23,643 bases of DNA. It comes from a virus. The position numbers were made by a program, and so were the translations under genes. Below the pieces are notes generated by a model. The model ran no database searches. It was given only the letters and a program-made list of their open reading frames with translations, and was not told the DNA's origin. The DNA lies in UHGV virus genome UHGV-1377030. One strand, 5' to 3'. This document shows positions 2,767-14,518 of this stretch, one piece after another (position 1 is the stretch's first letter; each line of letters opens with the position of its first letter).

Positions 2767-3042
2767 ATGTCGATGTACACAACCGCCCAGCTGCTGGCGG
2801 CAAATGAGCAGAAATTTAAGTTTGATCCGCTGTTTCTGCGTCTCTTTTTCCGTGAGAGCTATCCCTTCACCACGGAGAAAGTCTATCTCTCACAAATTCC
2901 GGGACTGGTAAACATGGCGCTGTACGTTTCGCCGATTGTTTCCGGTGAGGTTATCCGTTCCCGTGGCGGATCCACCTCTGAATTTACGCCGGGATATGTC
3001 AAACCCAAGCACTTAGCATGGCTTTCTGAGGCTTTCGTGTAG
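2767..3042 (+). pseudogene. E: Major capsid protein E, 5' fragment truncated by the island insertion
   Basis: MSMYTTAQLLAANEQKFKFDPLFLRLFFRESYPFTTEKVYLSQ...TPGYVKPKH matches the lambda gpE N-terminus up to about nt 3012; the frame then reads 10 unrelated codons (LAWLSEAFV) and stops at 3042. The rest of E resumes at 13730. Confidence 0.85.
3002..3011. repeat. Left copy of 10-bp direct repeat (putative attL core)
   Basis: aacccaagca; identical copy at 13728..13737. Lambda-homologous E sequence ends here. Confidence 0.55.
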
Positions 3043-6691: not shown

Positions 6692-6979
6692 ATGAAAAAT
6701 AAATTTTCTGGCTTTATTGCTAGCGGTCAAGCTCATTCAAAAATCAGCCTTGGGGATATTTTCAAAGATAGCTATGGCTATCGGGTAAAGATTATTTCGG
6801 TTGATGATCGCCGTGTCCCTTATTTGCGTGATGGTTATGATTTTGAATGTGTTATGCCGCGTCAGCAGTTCGAAAGAGATTTCATTCTGGTAAAAAATTG
6901 CAAGACAGATAATCAGAGGCGTGCCGCAGGCTATATCCGCAAAATTCGGGCAATGTTAGTTGCCGGAGGTAATAAATGA
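6692..6979 (+). CDS. Hypothetical protein
   Basis: 95-aa ORF starting 3 nt after the previous stop; operon context. Confidence 0.45.
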   Translation: MKNKFSGFIASGQAHSKISLGDIFKDSYGYRVKIISVDDRRVPYLRDGYDFECVMPRQQFERDFILVKNCKTDNQRRAAGYIRKIRAMLVAGGNK

Positions 6980-7158
6980 AACGTGCTCCGAACTTAAAAT
7001 ACCAACCGCGCGACAAAATGACAGAAGTCATCATTTTTGCTGGCAGTGATGCCTAGAGCCATGCAAAAGAATGGAATGAATGGGCGGGTAAGCATATTGC
7101 AGCAGATGATACACCACCAGTAATTCTGGGTACGGAACAACTGGAAAACCTGGATGAT

Positions 7159-8796
7159 ATGCAAATTATCGATGAAGGCCGTCATTATGTGCGTGTTTAT
7201 CGTGCCGGAAAGATTGCAGAGAAAAATCTGACGAAGGTTGCGACATTACTTGCTATTGCAGGCGTAAAGGAAGCACGTTGTTACCGTAGCTTTGTTGATC
7301 GAGAGCCTGAAGACTGGACTCCGCGCCTTGTCGGCCTAAAAGCTGAAGCGGAGCATGGGGAAAGTCTGGTGATTGAACTGCCAGTGAAGAAGGCTGAGCG
7401 CAAAAATGACGAGCGTGCTTCATCTTTGGCGTTGAATCAGATGGGGGCCAGCCAGCGCGGTGAAGTTCTCCTTGCACATTACGGCGGCGAACTGGCAATC
7501 AATGCCGACTCTGACACCGTTCATCATTACAACGGCGTTGTATGGGAGCCGGTTCAGGATAAAGAGTTACAGCGTGCTATGGCGCAGATTTTCATTGATG
7601 CGGAGATCAGCTATTCGCAGAACGCTATTAAATCGGCGGTAGATACCATGAAGTTAAGTTTGCCTGTAATGGGGAATACAGCCCGTAACCTGATTGGATT
7701 CAGTAACGGGGTATTTGATACCAGAACTGGTAATTTTCGGGAGCATAACAAAAACGACTGGTTGTTAATTGCCAGTGAATTACCTTTCAGCCCACCAGCA
7801 GAGGGGGAAACGCTGGCAACACATGCGCCGAATTTCTGGAAGTGGTTGCGCCGTTCGGTGGCTGAGAATGACCGCAAGGCAGATCGCGTACTGGCGGCAT
7901 TATTCATGGTGCTGGCGAACCGGTACGACTGGCAGTTATTCATTGAGGTAACAGGGCCGGGGGGAAGTGGTAAAAGTGTGATGGCGGAGATTTGCACCAT
8001 GCTGGCGGGTAAGGCTAATACAGTATCAGCAAGCATGAAGGCGCTGGAAGATGCAAGGGAACGTGCGTTAGTGGTTGGCTTTTCGCTGATTATCATGCCG
8101 GATATGACCCGCTACGCTGGTGATGGGGCAGGGATTAAGGCCATTACAGGCGGTGACAAGGTGGCAATTGACCCGAAACACAAAGCCCCCTATTCAACGC
8201 GTATTCCGGCAGTAGTGCTGGCGGTTAACAATAACGCCATGTCATTCAGTGACCGCAGCGGGGGGATCTCACGTCGTCGGGTGATATTCAATTTTTCGGA
8301 AGTTGTACCGGAGAACGAACGCGATTCGATGCTGGCGGAAAAAATAGAAGGTGAGCTGGCGGTAGTGATTCGTCATCTGCTTACAAGGTTTGCTGATCAG
8401 GACGAAGCCAGACGCCTGTTATATGAGCAGCAGAAATCTGAAGAAGCACTGGCGATAAAGCGAGAGGGGGATTCGCTGGTGGACTTCTGCGGTTATCTCA
8501 TGGCATCGGTAATGTGTGATGGCCTGTTAGTGGGTAATGCTGAAATTGTGCCATTCAGCCCACGCAGGTATCTCTATCATGCCTATCTGGCTTATATGAG
8601 GGCACATGGGTTTGGTAAACCTGTAACACTGACGCGCTTCGGTAAAGATATGCCGGGGGCAATGGCGGAATATGGCAGGGAGTATATGAAACGGAAAACG
8701 AAGCACGGTTTGCGTTCAAACGTGACCCTGACGGAGGAATCAGAAGACTGGATGCCATCATGTGTATCGGTCACTAATGACGATAGCAAAAATTAA
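7159..8796 (+). CDS. Phage/plasmid primase-helicase, P4 alpha-like (D5 N-terminal-like region plus SF3 P-loop NTPase)
   Basis: Walker A GPGGSGKS in TGPGGSGKSVMAEICTMLAG, a downstream hydrophobic-acidic Walker B-like stretch (LVVGFSLIIMPDM), and overall resemblance to satellite/PICI primase-replicase proteins. Gene is followed directly by an iteron array. Confidence 0.8.
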   Translation: MQIIDEGRHYVRVYRAGKIAEKNLTKVATLLAIAGVKEARCYRSFVDREPEDWTPRLVGLKAEAEHGESLVIELPVKKAERKNDERASSLALNQMGASQRGEVLLAHYGGELAINADSDTVHHYNGVVWEPVQDKELQRAMAQIFIDAEISYSQNAIKSAVDTMKLSLPVMGNTARNLIGFSNGVFDTRTGNFREHNKNDWLLIASELPFSPPAEGETLATHAPNFWKWLRRSVAENDRKADRVLAALFMVLANRYDWQLFIEVTGPGGSGKSVMAEICTMLAGKANTVSASMKALEDARERALVVGFSLIIMPDMTRYAGDGAGIKAITGGDKVAIDPKHKAPYSTRIPAVVLAVNNNAMSFSDRSGGISRRRVIFNFSEVVPENERDSMLAEKIEGELAVVIRHLLTRFADQDEARRLLYEQQKSEEALAIKREGDSLVDFCGYLMASVMCDGLLVGNAEIVPFSPRRYLYHAYLAYMRAHGFGKPVTLTRFGKDMPGAMAEYGREYMKRKTKHGLRSNVTLTEESEDWMPSCVSVTNDDSKN

Positions 8797-9808: not shown

Positions 9809-9992
9809 ATTTTCCGGCATGCTACATAAATCCCGACCAAAGGGAGTGAAGATATTAACACTAATTATCCGCGCTGGAGTTGTTATCCCAAAACTTTATA
9901 CAACATTGCACTCGGTTGCATGTATTCGCATGACAAATATCGGTGATAGCATATATCCACAATTATTTTTAATGAATGCAAAGAGGATGCGT

Positions 9993-11033
9993 ATGGTTGA
10001 TTTATATTCGCCTACCCAGCTTGTACAGGTGGTTAATGCTGTAGATGTACAAAAACAACTAAATGCGTTGTTTACCAGTTTGTTTTTTACTCGCTCGGTA
10101 ATGTTTGAATCGCGCGATATTATTCTTGATACAATCGACGATCCAAATATCCCAATTGCAGCGTTTTGTTCTCCTATGGTAGGTAGTAAAGTTTCACGTG
10201 ACGAAGGGTACGAATCAAAAACAATTCGTCCAGGCTATATGAAGCCGAAAAGCAGCATTGATCCAAATAAGTTAGCTGTGCGCCCTGCTGGTGTATCACC
10301 TGAGCAATACAATGCTTTTGGAGCGCGTAATATTAAAGTTAAACAGGCGATTGTAAATCAGGCTAAAGCTATTCGTGCACGTATTGAATGGTTTGCCGTT
10401 CAGGCAATCACAACGGGGAAAAATATCATTGAGGGCGATGGTATTGAACGTTATGAGCTGGACTGGAATATAAAACCACAAAATATCATCACTCAGTCTG
10501 GCGGTACTGAGTGGTCAGGTAAGGATAAAGAAACTTTTGATCCAAATGATGATATTGAGAGCTACGCAGAATTTAGTGAGGGCGTCACTAATATCATCAT
10601 TATGGGCGGTAATGTATGGAAGAAATACCGTTCATTCAGAGCGATAAAAGAGGCTCTGGATACCCGTCGTGGTTCTAATTCCGAACTGGAAACGGCCCTT
10701 AAAGACCTTGGTGATTCGGTGAGTTTTAAAGGGTATATGGGCGATGTTGCGATTGTTGTATACAGCGGGCGTTATACCGACGAGGACGGAACTGAAAAAC
10801 ATTTCCTTGATCCTGATTTGATGGTGCTTGGCAATACGGCTCTTCAGGGGATTGTCGCCTATGGCGGTATTCAGGATCCGGAGCTAATCCGAATGGGGCT
10901 GACTAAAGCCGAACTTGCACCGAAAAACTATATTGTGCCTGGTGATCCGGCTATTGAATATGTGCAGACACATTCAGCACCACAGCCAATACCGGCCCGC
11001 ATCAATCGTTTTGTTACCGTTCGCATTGGCTAA
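9993..11033 (+). CDS. Island-encoded major capsid protein homologue (lambda gpE-like, full length)
   Basis: ATG at 9993 with an AGAGGA SD 5 nt upstream. MVDLYSPTQLVQ... aligns with the gpE N-terminus, and the C-terminal half is clearly homologous (ITQSGGTEWS, LDTRRGSNSELETA, GDVAIVVYSG, MVLGNT, GDPA), visible even at nucleotide level. Confidence 0.85.
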   Translation: MVDLYSPTQLVQVVNAVDVQKQLNALFTSLFFTRSVMFESRDIILDTIDDPNIPIAAFCSPMVGSKVSRDEGYESKTIRPGYMKPKSSIDPNKLAVRPAGVSPEQYNAFGARNIKVKQAIVNQAKAIRARIEWFAVQAITTGKNIIEGDGIERYELDWNIKPQNIITQSGGTEWSGKDKETFDPNDDIESYAEFSEGVTNIIIMGGNVWKKYRSFRAIKEALDTRRGSNSELETALKDLGDSVSFKGYMGDVAIVVYSGRYTDEDGTEKHFLDPDLMVLGNTALQGIVAYGGIQDPELIRMGLTKAELAPKNYIVPGDPAIEYVQTHSAPQPIPARINRFVTVRIG

Positions 11034-11042
11034 GGGGGAGCA

Positions 11043-11384
11043 ATGGCTACTCATTACACTGAACTCATGGCTGGCACTGAAGCACTGGTGACTACGCTGG
11101 GGATATTTTCAGCTAATAAAGGGGTAATTCCTGCATTTACGCCACTGATGCAGGAAGATGCAACAGGTGCACTGGTGGTATGGGATGGTTCGAGCGTAGG
11201 TAAAGCGGTTTATGTTTCCGCTGTACAAATCGACACCGCGAAAAAAACACAGGCTCAGGTCTATAAGACAGGTGTCTTAAATGTTGATGCTCTGAACTGG
11301 CCTGAGTCTGTAAAAGAACTGTCAGTAAAGATTGCAGCGTTTGTTGGCTCAGGTATTTCTGTTCAGCCGCTGGCTCGTGTGTAA
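11043..11384 (+). CDS. Island-encoded head decoration protein homologue (lambda gpD-like)
   Basis: 113 aa with strong SD (AAGGGGGAG). TPLMQEDATGALVVWDGSSVGKAVYVSAVQ...FVGSGISV parallels gp[30 protein letters not shown]...FAGTAISIV; similar length. Confidence 0.7.
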   Translation: MATHYTELMAGTEALVTTLGIFSANKGVIPAFTPLMQEDATGALVVWDGSSVGKAVYVSAVQIDTAKKTQAQVYKTGVLNVDALNWPESVKELSVKIAAFVGSGISVQPLARV

Positions 11385-11395
11385 AGGGGGATACA

Positions 11396-11779
11396 ATGCA
11401 GAATGATTACAATGACCTTAAGCCACTTGCCGAAATGATGTACCCGAATCCAGCTGTAGAGGAATTAAAAGCTATCGCTGACAAAATGTGTTTAAGCGAG
11501 CGCCTTGTTGATATGAATCAGGTGATGGAAATTACAACCCTGAGTCGGCGTACACTGCTAAACCTTGAGGCTAGTGGAGAGTTCCCGGAGCGTGTGCAGG
11601 TTACGGAAGGGCGTAAGGCCTGGTATTTAAGTGAAGTGATCGACTGGATAAATAATATTCCTCGCGCTTCTGAATATTGCCGCGTACCTGTCCCAAAAAA
11701 GCCAGATGCGGCGCTATGCCTCAAGATTGAGCGTGTACGCCGCAATGCACGGGATGGTCGCTATAAGCTGATTGGTTGA
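11396..11779 (+). CDS. Small HTH DNA-binding protein (AlpA/MerR-like winged helix), candidate cos-binding or packaging-redirecting protein
   Basis: 127 aa with strong SD. Central segment MEITTLSRRTLLNLEASGEFPERVQVTEGRKAWYLSEVIDWINN has AlpA-like HTH architecture; gene sits directly upstream of the island cos site. Confidence 0.55.
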   Translation: MQNDYNDLKPLAEMMYPNPAVEELKAIADKMCLSERLVDMNQVMEITTLSRRTLLNLEASGEFPERVQVTEGRKAWYLSEVIDWINNIPRASEYCRVPVPKKPDAALCLKIERVRRNARDGRYKLIG

Positions 11780-11832
11780 TGAAATTAGGGCCCGCTCTGG
11801 CTGGCGGGTCCTTTCCGGCGATCTGACAGGCT

Positions 11833-12000
11833 ACGGGGCGTCAGGCGCGCAGTTTTTTGCTATTTGTGAAAATTTTCCTGTTTAAGGCGTTTCCGTTCTT
11901 CTTCGCCGTAACTTAATGTTTTTATTAAAAACACCCCCTAAAAAGAAAGGAAACGACAGGTGCTAAAAACAGGCTTTTTGGCCTCTGTCGTTTCCTTTCT
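11833..12000 (+). other. Lambda-type cos site carried by the island (cosN-like plus cosB R3, I1 region, R2, R1)
   Basis: Sequence from ctacggggcg... through gcgtttccgttcttcttcg (R3-like, 11888..11905), agaaaggaaacgacag (R2-like, 11944..11959) and ctgtcgtttcctttct (R1-like, 11985..12000) closely parallels the left end of lambda DNA as I recall it. The R-site region is near-identical; the cosN segment differs at several positions. Confidence 0.75.
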
Positions 12001-12345
12001 CTGGTTTTGTTGCCATCCGTCGCGGTCTATCACCAGAAAAAATCTTATCCCTGAGTTGAATCAGGCCCTATTCAGAAGCGGCCAATAACGCGCCGCTAGC
12101 TTCACTTCATAGTTATGGCCTACTTCTGCGCCATTGCAATTGCTTTATGCGCCTTGATGGTGGAATATAGAGCAAGCAGTTTGCGAATAACAAAGTTTCA
12201 TATGTTTTTTGCTGTGTGGCTAGACAACTTTACAGCAGAGTTTTGTGTCAGTTCTTTATGTGTGCAAGCAAGCTTGAGGGGGAATTACTTCTGGCTGCAT
12301 CTTTGCTTAAGAACAGCAATAATTTAATCATAAGGAAATGTATAT

Positions 12346-12368
12346 AAGCCTGATTAAATTTCAGGCTT
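12346..12368 (-). terminator. Hairpin immediately 3' of the TIR-domain gene
   Basis: aagcctga (12346..12353) pairs with tcaggctt (12361..12368) around a 7-nt loop, 10 nt beyond the gene stop, in AT-rich context. Confidence 0.4.
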
Positions 12369-12377
12369 ATTGAAATG

Positions 12378-13520
12378 TTAACTCCTTATTAGAGAGTAAA
12401 TTCCATCCTCTTTAAGGAAGTCTATTACTTCAAAGAATGAGATAAAGAATTCCCAAGAACCAAAAGCATATGCATGAATTTCGTAAGGTGCAAAATGGAA
12501 TCTAAATCCATCACTATTTATTGTGAACGAGTCTAAGTTACTATCCATGATACCCGTTGCAAACGTACTAATGTCGTCCTCACTTGGTTTTTCACCAGTT
12601 TTCTCCCAAAATTCACGAGCTGATTCAGAGATTATTTTTTGTTTTATCTTATTAATCGCTTCTTGCTCTTTCCCTTCGGTAAATACATCCCATAAACTAA
12701 ATTTGTATGCGTAGTCATCCTTGGTTATTACGAAATTACTAGTTTCAAAATGACTGTTAGGGTGTGCTGCTCCCGCACCATACCAATGTACGGAATGAAG
12801 GATGCTCATAACATTTTCGTTACAGTATGAGATGTTATAACTTTCATTATAGGAACTAGTGTAAGTGTGTTTATATTCTTCATCCCAATATGGTGTTCCT
12901 GGCCATAGTGATGTGCGTTCAGAAAAAATATGTAAAGCCGCTTTTCCTGAAAAGTAATCACTAATGAGTTTTGCTGATTTCGGTAATGTATGGCTTTCAA
13001 TTCTTGGATATGCTATTTCAATTTCATGCCCTGGGATCTTGTTATATTCTTCCTTGAAAACCTCGCTGCTAAAGTTAAATGGCCCATAAGTGATACCTTG
13101 AGATATTTCAAGTTTTTGTTGCGATGCTGCTAATCTTAAAGATCTAGATAAAATGTCCCAACCATCATTTCTCTTAAAATCAATGAATTGGAGCTTGCTT
13201 GATATGTAGGCGGGTACTTCGCAATCATCAATAAGTAATGGTATCACGAACACATCATCTGGTTTGTAATACTTTAGTTTATCAATGGCGTCATTTATTT
13301 CGCGGCGAATATAACCATTTTTCTGAGTGCTCACTTTGCTAAGGATAAGGATTATCAAGTTTGAATTAGCGAAGTTTTTTTGGATTTCATAATCCCAGTT
13401 TACGCCAGCGGGTATATCTTTTACATCCATCCAAGGGGAATATCCTCCACTTTTTAGCCTTTCATAGATTTCTTCAGTTATCGTTTCATCTTCTTTTGCA
13501 TGAGCAAGAAAAATTTTCAT
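12378..13520 (-). CDS. TIR-domain protein with uncharacterised ~240-aa C-terminal domain (candidate anti-phage defence cargo)
   Basis: 380-aa ORF with an AAGGAA SD 6 nt upstream. N-terminus MKIFLAHAKEDETITEEIYERLKSGGYSPWMDVKDIPAGVNW...LIILILSKVSTQKNGYIRREINDAI fits the bacterial TIR pattern (K-I/V-F-L/I-S/A-H/Y start, W at box 2, S-x-x-S...E catalytic-type segment). Strongly AT-rich relative to island and phage genes. Confidence 0.75.
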   Translation of the reverse strand: MKIFLAHAKEDETITEEIYERLKSGGYSPWMDVKDIPAGVNWDYEIQKNFANSNLIILILSKVSTQKNGYIRREINDAIDKLKYYKPDDVFVIPLLIDDCEVPAYISSKLQFIDFKRNDGWDILSRSLRLAASQQKLEISQGITYGPFNFSSEVFKEEYNKIPGHEIEIAYPRIESHTLPKSAKLISDYFSGKAALHIFSERTSLWPGTPYWDEEYKHTYTSSYNESYNISYCNENVMSILHSVHWYGAGAAHPNSHFETSNFVITKDDYAYKFSLWDVFTEGKEQEAINKIKQKIISESAREFWEKTGEKPSEDDISTFATGIMDSNLDSFTINSDGFRFHFAPYEIHAYAFGSWEFFISFFEVIDFLKEDGIYSLIRS

Positions 13521-13727: not shown

Positions 13728-13737
13728 AACCCAAGCA
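13728..13737. repeat. Right copy of 10-bp direct repeat (putative attR core)
   Basis: aacccaagca; lambda E-homologous sequence resumes exactly here. Confidence 0.55.
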
Positions 13738-14518
13738 TGAGGTGAATCCGCAGATGACCCTGCGTCGCCTGCCGGATGAAGATCCGCAGAATCTGGCGGA
13801 CCCGGCTTACCGCCGCCGTCGCATCATCATGCAGAACATGCGTGACGAAGAGCTGGCCATTGCTCAGGTCGAAGAGATGCAGGCCGTTTCTGCCGTGCTT
13901 AAGGGCAAATACACCATGACCGGTGAAGCCTTCGATCCGGTTGAGGTGGATATGGGCCGCAGTGCGGCGAATAACATCACGCAGTCCGGCGGCACGGAGT
14001 GGAGCAAGCGTGACAAGTCCACGTATGACCCGACCGACGATATCGAAGCCTACGCGCTGAACGCCAGCGGTGTGGTGAATATCATCGTGTTTGATCCGAA
14101 AGGCTGGGCGCTGTTCCGTTCCTTCAAAGCCGTCAAGGAGAAGCTGGATACCCGTCGTGGCTCTAATTCCGAGCTGGAGACAGCGGTGAAAGACCTGGGT
14201 AAAGCGGTGTCCTATAAGGGGATGTATGGCGATGTTGCCATCGTCGTGTATTCCGGACAGTACGTGGAAAACGGCGTCAAAAAGAACTTCCTGCCGGACA
14301 ACACGATGGTGCTGGGGAACACTCAGGCACGCGGTCTGCGTACCTATGGCTGTATTCAGGATGCGGACGCACAGCGCGAAGGCATTAACGCCTCTGCCCG
14401 TTACCCGAAAAACTGGGTGACCACCGGCGATCCGGCGCGTGAGTTCACCATGATTCAGTCAGCACCGCTGATGCTGCTGGCTGACCCTGATGAGTTCGTG
14501 TCCGTACAACTGGCGTAA
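13730..14518 (+). pseudogene. E: Major capsid protein E, 3' fragment (continuation of the gene interrupted at about 3012)
   Basis: PKHEVNPQMTLRRLPDEDPQNLADPAYRRRR...DEFVSVQLA matches lambda gpE from about residue 80 to the C-terminus. An in-frame TAA at 13727..13729 precedes it, so the fragment lacks its N-terminal part. Confidence 0.85.

Follow-up and report, generated by a model that had tools for sequence, protein, structure and literature searches.

An island in the capsid gene of a lambda-like prophage

The window (the whole stretch of 23,643 nucleotides that was analysed) is E. coli chromosome that contains a lambda-like prophage, and shares 99.3% identity with NZ_OZ546943 and NZ_CP032204. 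The major capsid (E-like) gene of the prophage is present as two fragments that flank an island of low GC content. The N-terminal part extends from 2767 to 3011 and the C-terminal part from 13738 to 14518, and in the annotated 99.3%-identical record both fragments appear as partial major capsid proteins. The same 10-mer, AACCCAAGCA, is found at both junctions. The left copy (attL core, 3002-3011, + strand) is where the reading frame of E is broken, and the helper E gene resumes after the right copy (attR core, 13728-13737, + strand). Measured from core to core, the island is 10,726 bp. It lies inside the major capsid gene of its presumed helper prophage and in the same orientation. The helper's own capsid protein cannot be made until the island excises.

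We determined the gene order from the annotation that RefSeq gives for the 99.3%-identical record, together with Pfam hits for AlpA, SSB, Phage_cap_E, and HDPD. The island begins with genes for an integrase and an AlpA-family regulator, which are followed by several genes for small proteins and then by those for a primase, an SSB, and capsid and decoration proteins of the E and D families. Next come the gene for a second AlpA-family protein (127 amino acids) and, on the other strand, that for a TIR-domain protein. This is the gene order of a PICI: int-alpA, a dynamic zone, a replication zone with primase and SSB, and a late zone with captured late genes. The island belongs to a published type of helper-embedded PICI, capE. 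Membership in the capE group is indicated by the split of the helper E gene at AACCCAAGCA, and insertion into E with a 10-bp att core is the published configuration of helper-embedded PICIs.

Two features of the island genes bear on how it might replicate and be packaged. The primase gene (6976-8796) has a premature TAG at codon 27 (7054-7056), and the 99.3%-identical record lists it as a pseudogene; it is intact in four relatives (L324, L325, L326, and L327; L numbers are our labels). E. coli TUM14697 (NZ_CP128888) and DSM 103246 are examples of composite lysogens in which the island primase is intact. With its primase interrupted, this copy of the island may not be capable of independent replication. 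The E-family capsid and D-family decoration proteins (encoded at 9819-11384) are related to those of the helper, the capsid protein being ~42-47% identical to helper E over its C-terminal part and the decoration protein ~38% identical to its helper counterpart. The island has no portal, protease, or terminase gene. As an alternative to packaging in heads of phage size, smaller heads suited to the 10.7-kb genome might be assembled from these two proteins.

The island contains a lambda-type cos

An earlier note on this DNA had drawn attention to a cos-like region after the capsid genes, in the orientation of the left end of lambda, with R3, inverted R2, and R1 elements close to those of lambda and a different cohesive end. 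We aligned the region with the joined ends of lambda (J02459). The similarity was far beyond chance, with 88.9% identity over 207 bp and 1 gap (blastn, E 2.5e-75), and the orientation was as described. The island cos was 88.3% identical over 205 bp, with no gaps, to the resident prophage's own cos (blastn). The homology to lambda starts upstream of the region first noticed, stops at 12010, and includes more than had been listed, that is, cosQ and the spacing of the elements. Based on the sequence, positions 11806-12010 are a full lambda-type cos, with cosQ, cosN, and cosB (R3, I1, R2, and R1).

The individual elements are as follows. The cosQ heptamer GGGTCCT (11806-11812, + strand), the packaging-termination element, is the same as lambda's and lies exactly 30 bp upstream of the cohesive end's bp 1, as in lambda. 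In cosN (11834-11849, + strand), the 12-mer GGGCGTCAGGCG (11836-11847) is flanked on each side by CG. By homology, nicks would be made at 11835/11836 on the top strand and at 11847/11848 on the bottom strand. R3 (11885-11900, + strand; lambda bp 50-65) is identical to lambda and has its core, CGTTTCCGTTCT, at 11888-11899. There is no indel between cosN and R3, and the R3 core is at bp 53-64, as in lambda; the role of R3 and of the cosN-to-R3 spacing has been described (PMC9026076). The I1 segment between R3 and R2 (11901-11943, + strand) is homologous to lambda bp 66-108 and contains a block, TAACTTAATGTTTTTATT, that is identical to lambda's. I1 is the region bent by IHF in lambda and, by analogy with lambda, would be expected to bind IHF here. 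The R2 core (11944-11955, - strand) is inverted, reading AGAAAGGAAACG on the + strand and CGTTTCCTTTCT on the - strand, and is at bp 109-120, as in lambda. The R1 core, CGTTTCCTTTCT, is at 11989-12000 on the + strand. It is 1 bp closer than in the lambda reference, a difference that the resident prophage cos shares.

The R3, R2, and R1 elements quoted in the earlier note are thus present where it had placed them, and all three cores are identical to those of lambda. We searched the window for the pattern CGTTTCCKTTCT, allowing at most one mismatch. There were exactly three matches in the 23.6 kb, R3, R2, and R1, compared to 0.24 expected, and none of 100 shuffled sequences had three. The proposal that the island is built for a lambda-like Nu1 and terminase holds insofar as this cosB is predicted to be read directly by lambda-type Nu1.

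The island cos is bordered by an 8-bp GC-rich hairpin (11788-11811, + strand; arms GGGCCCGC and GCGGGTCC, loop TCTGGCTG) that is specific to islands and whose 3' arm overlaps cosQ. In IMG/VR, CCCGCTCTGGCTGGCGGGTCC identifies island-type cos sites at 57 loci, and phage cos sites have other sequence at this position. A hairpin at cosQ might end late transcription, or might alter access to cosQ when the DNA is single-stranded or transcribed. A scan for terminators and promoters around cos found nothing above chance.

Genes next to cos

The last gene of the island late module (11396-11779, + strand) ends 27 bp before cosQ and encodes a 127-amino acid winged-HTH protein of the AlpA family (Pfam PF05930, E 7.6e-9; PDB 8c3t, 'AlpA family phage regulatory protein', E 2e-9). 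The protein has an N-terminal extension of ~35 amino acids and is 94-100% identical across all sibling islands, whatever their type of cosB. It could have a role in late regulation or in packaging.

We considered two candidates for an Rpp. One was this 127-amino acid protein. The other was the product of a 70-amino acid open reading frame (12115-12327), the sole one on the + strand after cos. In sequence searches, neither had a PDB match to RppC at E<=1, and the 127-amino acid protein belongs instead to the AlpA family. The island differs from the Rpp-type PICIs in having all three lambda R elements (R3, R2, and R1), and we found no rpp directly downstream of cos.

The region downstream of cos has been exchanged

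In the typical arrangement, cos is immediately upstream of terS (Nu1). This island has no terS. The position of terS is occupied by cargo (12011-13520, - strand; GC ~0.36-0.38) that begins 10 bp after R1 and includes a gene encoding a protein with TIR and DUF3298 domains (12378-13520, - strand; N-terminal TIR_2, E 2.8e-21; C-terminal DUF3298, E 1e-10). Analysis of the TIR cargo protein with PADLOC gave TIR-domain matches only and no named defence system.

The absence of a terminase gene after cos, which the earlier note had pointed out, is correct for this copy and is secondary. Eight sibling islands (L008, L016, L035, L040, L060, L072, L078, and L081) have a nu1-like terS (183 amino acids; 5580-6113 in L008) right after the same cos. 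The window and these siblings are identical through a stretch ending in CTCTGGTTTTGT (window 12010) and then diverge. Because of this shared boundary, the cos described here is considered to sit in the normal cos-terS position, with the TIR cargo having replaced terS from 10 bp after R1.

The Nu1-like protein of the siblings differs from lambda Nu1 at 2 positions in residues 1-102 and is ~45% identical to it in the C-terminal 80 residues. That is, the protein is chimeric: the part near that of lambda corresponds to DNA binding and dimerisation, and the divergent part is where lambda Nu1 binds gpA. The chimeric Nu1 could have a different TerL partner or could function in interference.

Other siblings from IMG/VR (L219, L218, L044, L216, L217, and L224) have the same upstream gene, hairpin, and cosQ, followed by an entirely different cosB and then, in each, a different type of terS, including a phage-21-type terS in L219. 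The cosN alleles in this group are lambda's, GGGCGGAAGGCG, GGGCGGCAGACG, and GGGCGGCTGACG. The terS-like protein of the L044-type siblings had no PDB match. Because islands that share the upstream gene and hairpin carry varied cosB and terS types, the cos-terS block behaves as an exchangeable cassette, with a crossover inside cos. This fits the idea of 'late gene capture' (PMC10111431).

It is possible that the island cos is an inert relic that was dragged in with captured late genes and is no longer used. The primase of this copy is interrupted, PICI capsid genes are dispensable for transfer (PMC6092414), and no virions were seen for the published composite (PMC10111431). However, the cos block has been kept intact even though the cargo changes immediately after it, with a breakpoint 10 bp past R1, and all of the subsites and their spacings are kept in more than 40 islands with a lambda cosB. 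In addition, the module consisting of the capsid, decoration, and HTH genes and cos is found, at >=80% coverage, in 394 of 5,426 complete E. coli genomes, and the primase is intact in the four sequences mentioned above. We regard a relic as highly unlikely.

The cosN allele of the island is also found in phages

The 12-mer of the island, GGGCGTCAGGCG, differs from that of lambda (J02459), GGGCGGCGACCT, at 5 of 12 positions (bp 6, 8, 9, 10, and 12), so the divergence of the cohesive end reported in the earlier note is real. The flanking ACG and CGC, bp 1-5 (GGGCG), and bp 11 are unchanged. Different cohesive ends would indeed be generated if the site is cut at the homologous positions. However, such ends are not special to the island.

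A 16-mer, GGGGCGTCAGGCGCGC, occurs together with a lambda-type cosB in 39 IMG/VR contigs, mostly capE islands. In three of the others (L022, L077, and L094), however, the variant 12-mer is directly upstream of genes for Nu1 (98-99% identical to lambda) and gpA (99-100%). A fourth (L036) has the same phage-type upstream context beside the variant allele, and its contig ends before nu1. Because the same allele precedes Nu1 and gpA that are 98-100% identical to those of lambda, the variant is not specific to islands and is best described as a standing natural allele. A third allele, GGGCGGAAGGCG, which has the island's bp 8-12, is found in the deposited phages PhiR46_1 (L096, about 3030) and YDC107_1 (L098, about 3030), both with Nu1 and gpA of lambda type. 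Going by these sequences, a minimum of three alleles of the 12-mer are in circulation alongside what is essentially a single terminase.

We compiled 180 lambda-type cos sites, 118 in phage context and 62 in island context, a sample partly enriched by an allele-specific scan. The phage-context sites had the lambda allele in 103 cases, GGGCGGAAGGCG in 8, GGGCGTCAGGCG in 5, and singletons in 2. The island-context sites had GGGCGTCAGGCG in 50 cases, the lambda allele in 6, GGGCGGAAGGCG in 4, and GGGCGGCAGACG and GGGCGGCTGACG in one each. Across cosN and its flanks in all 180 sites, the unconstrained positions that vary are bp 6-10 and 12 only. In a set that included an allele-neutral scan for R2, the variant allele was present in 3 of roughly 112 phage-context sites. 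In phage context it was found just in prophage-derived IMG/VR contigs. The exact allele was absent from 50,697 deposited phage genomes, in which the best match (97.3%) carried GGGCGGAAGGCG.

A scan for ACGGGGCGTCAGGCGCGC with one genome per species was uninformative about spread outside E. coli. The 98 matches were at the level of chance and mostly in GC-rich genomes. The sole match to pass a loose filter for cos context (L318) was a GC-rich sequence without a lambda-type cos.

These findings are consistent with what is known of cosN. Lambda-like phages commonly differ at bp 7-12, and lambda TerL nicks such variant sites efficiently (Feiss et al. 2015, PMC4669245). By the same account, cosQ, the left half of cosN, and the CG pairs on its flanks are conserved, and mutations in the left half are severe, whereas the symmetric changes in the right half are not (PMC4669245). 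A study that surveyed how cosN varies in nature (Vahanian et al. 2017, Virology 509:140) came to the same view, according to a second-hand summary. The G to T change at bp 6 is the single island difference outside the published tolerant zone (bp 7-12) and is at the edge of the sensitive left half. The allele series, 180 sites with almost identical terminases, independently supports the notion that TerL reads the left half of cosN and its flanks. It also supports the published view that TerL is positioned on the right half of cosN by cosB.

It could also be that the difference in cosN reflects real specificity. If so, the island would be cut only by the terminase of rare lambda-type phages that have GGGCGTCAGGCG, and the resident prophage would not be its packaging helper. 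The position of bp 6 in the mutation-sensitive half of cosN (PMC4669245) is in keeping with this, as is the rarity of the allele in phage context, where it is found in a few percent of lambda-type cos sites (3 of ~112, or 5 of 118 overall). In addition, the gpA of L077, the one full-length gpA beside the TCAGGCG allele, has the changes S269G and V377L. We found no gpA residue that tracks the allele among 52 full-length gpA sequences, a comparison of low power with just that 1 beside the TCAGGCG allele. V377L, however, is also found with lambda-type alleles, the gpA beside the variant has 99-100% identity with lambda's, and TerL is reported not to be cosN-specific for right-half changes (PMC4669245). 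The helpers of the embedded islands, described below, also argue against such specificity.

Helper and island have different cohesive-end sequences

We found that the helper prophage has the lambda 12-mer and the embedded island has GGGCGTCAGGCG in all of the composites compared (11/11). The composites come from 5 complete genomes, in which the prophages are at different chromosomal sites, and from 6 IMG/VR contigs. The island cos and the helper cos are 15.2 kb apart and in the same orientation, and their ends would match at 7 of 12 positions. This consistent mismatch between the 12-mers of helper and island appears to be new. Based on the 11 composites, these islands can evidently persist without matching the cosN of the helper. 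If only a terminase from a phage with the variant allele could cut the island, then none of the 11 embedded islands would have a matching helper, and the embedded lifestyle would be pointless. We consider that kind of specificity unlikely.

It is possible that the mismatch is adaptive and has been selected. Hybrid chromosomes that extend from one cos to the other would be unable to circularise, and incompatible cohesive ends would be a barrier between the parasite and its host phage. A mismatch at 2 of 12 positions of the ends is already enough to lower yield about fourfold (PMC4669245). If selection of this kind has occurred, the mismatch would separate satellite and helper DNA while TerS and cosB are shared, and the barrier would matter most when both cos sites are on one replicating composite molecule, 15.2 kb apart and in the same orientation. 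In addition to its presence in 11/11 composites, the mismatch has a distribution that might be taken as a sign of selection. The variant 12-mer is present in every sampled island with a lambda cosB, but 6 of the islands with other cosB and terS types have that of lambda. The 12-mer is also constant, even though mosaicism reaches to within 10 nt of it on both sides. The uniformity of the lambda-cosB islands counts against our preferred explanation (below), since selection rather than neutrality could account for it.

However, descent alone explains the mismatch, because the lambda allele is carried by ~90% of lambda-type phages, and so of helpers, and this module is nearly clonal among the islands. 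An island allele that is fixed will mismatch most helpers. With 98-100% identity among the islands in the adjacent genes, the counts are not independent. We identified no clear gain in fitness to the island from killing hybrid chromosomes. An adaptive mismatch seems improbable to us. Whatever its origin, the mismatch is a sequence tag that would tell island ends from helper ends in DNA from particles.

A model for packaging of the island

The most likely explanation is that the site is the cos of a capE-type HE-PICI, acquired from a lambda-type phage as a cos-terS block, that the island is packaged by its helper, and that the cosN allele is near-neutral. We estimate a probability of about 0.7 for this explanation as a whole.

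In this model, packaging follows induction of the prophage and excision and replication of the island. Dimers of helper Nu1 (TerS) would bind R3 and R2, and also R1, which in the island match those of the helper in sequence and spacing. IHF would bend I1 between the Nu1-bound R3 and R2. The gpA protein (TerL), anchored by Nu1 at R3, would then nick the variant cosN, generating 12-nt 5' ends with the sequence GGGCGTCAGGCG. DNA would be translocated rightwards, and packaging would terminate at the next downstream cosQ-cosN once the head was sufficiently full. The five differences in cosN would represent a neutral or near-neutral allele, at positions where lambda TerL is not strict, and would not confer new specificity.

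Because cosB is shared with the helper, the island would not need an Rpp-like protein to redirect the terminase. With a lambda cosB and no Rpp found, the island should compete directly with the helper for unmodified Nu1. Four copies of the island genome come to 42.9 kb, near a lambda headful. This is in line with EcCICFT073, of which lambda and phi80 package concatemers of phage length (PMC6092414).

Comparison with known systems

An island with a helper-like cos has already been published as the helper-embedded PICI Eco567.11capE (Tommasini, Mageeney and Williams 2023, PMC10111431). Eco567.11capE is an 11-kb PICI that is inserted into gene E, the capsid gene of the lambdoid prophage 50icd, and has the same orientation as that gene. 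The element has a 10-bp identity block at its att sites and encodes a capsid protein itself. It shares with its helper a segment of 258 bp at 90% identity at the position of the lambda cos, and since the island lacks terS, the authors presumed packaging by the helper's cos machinery. They did not detect helper virions. The site was not divided into subsites in that paper, and cosN is not mentioned (0 occurrences). The island described here has in common with 11capE a size of ~11 kb, insertion in a lambdoid E gene, int-alpA, a primase, an E-family capsid gene of its own, no terS, and, at the end of the late zone, a segment of ~200-260 bp that is ~90% identical to the helper cos. The helper prophages differ: here they are in the DLP12 and Qin neighbourhoods (11capE, from NRG857c, was compared by description). 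The island family and cosN variation of this kind are already described, and our finding is real but largely ordinary.

Compared to the lambda cos, the island cos has the same order, orientation, and spacing of subsites (except that R1 is 1 bp closer), with identical R cores, cosQ, CG flanks, and cosN bp 1-5 and 11. It is unlike the lambda cos in its variant 12-mer, in having no Nu1 gene downstream in this island, and in the island-specific hairpin that abuts cosQ. Natural cosN variants are known from N15 and phiD326 (bp 9 and 12), Gifsy-1 (bp 8, 9, and 11), and mEp213/LLS (GGGCGGCGCGCT). The island allele has more differences from lambda (5/12) than the variants of N15, phiD326, Gifsy-1, and mEp213, and one of its differences is at bp 6.

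Satellites of the SaPIbov5 type in Staphylococcus likewise carry the cos of their helper and rely on its terminase (PMC6092414). Unlike the island, they belong with an unrelated phage family and an HNH-dependent terminase system, and they are not helper-embedded.

A further comparison is with the Rpp-type PICIs. EcCICFT073 and its relatives have a cosQ and cosN near those of lambda; their cosB is unrelated and has just one proposed R site. That cosB is read by an Rpp-TerS heterodimer, and rpp is just downstream (PMC6739421, PMC9026076). As in the island described here, the cos of these elements (EcCICFT073 cos1; Fillol-Salom 2018, 2019; Murialdo and Feiss 2022) is at the end of a late module with E-like and D-like genes, and packaging depends on the helper's lambda-type TerS and TerL. 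The arrangement within cos is the opposite: here cosB is that of lambda, cosN differs, and no Rpp was found. The comparison shows that islands that parasitise lambda use more than one solution to packaging. The Rpp-type PICIs have kept cosN and changed cosB, whereas the capE islands have kept the helper's cosB and tolerate a variant cosN, sometimes with a nu1-like terS of their own.
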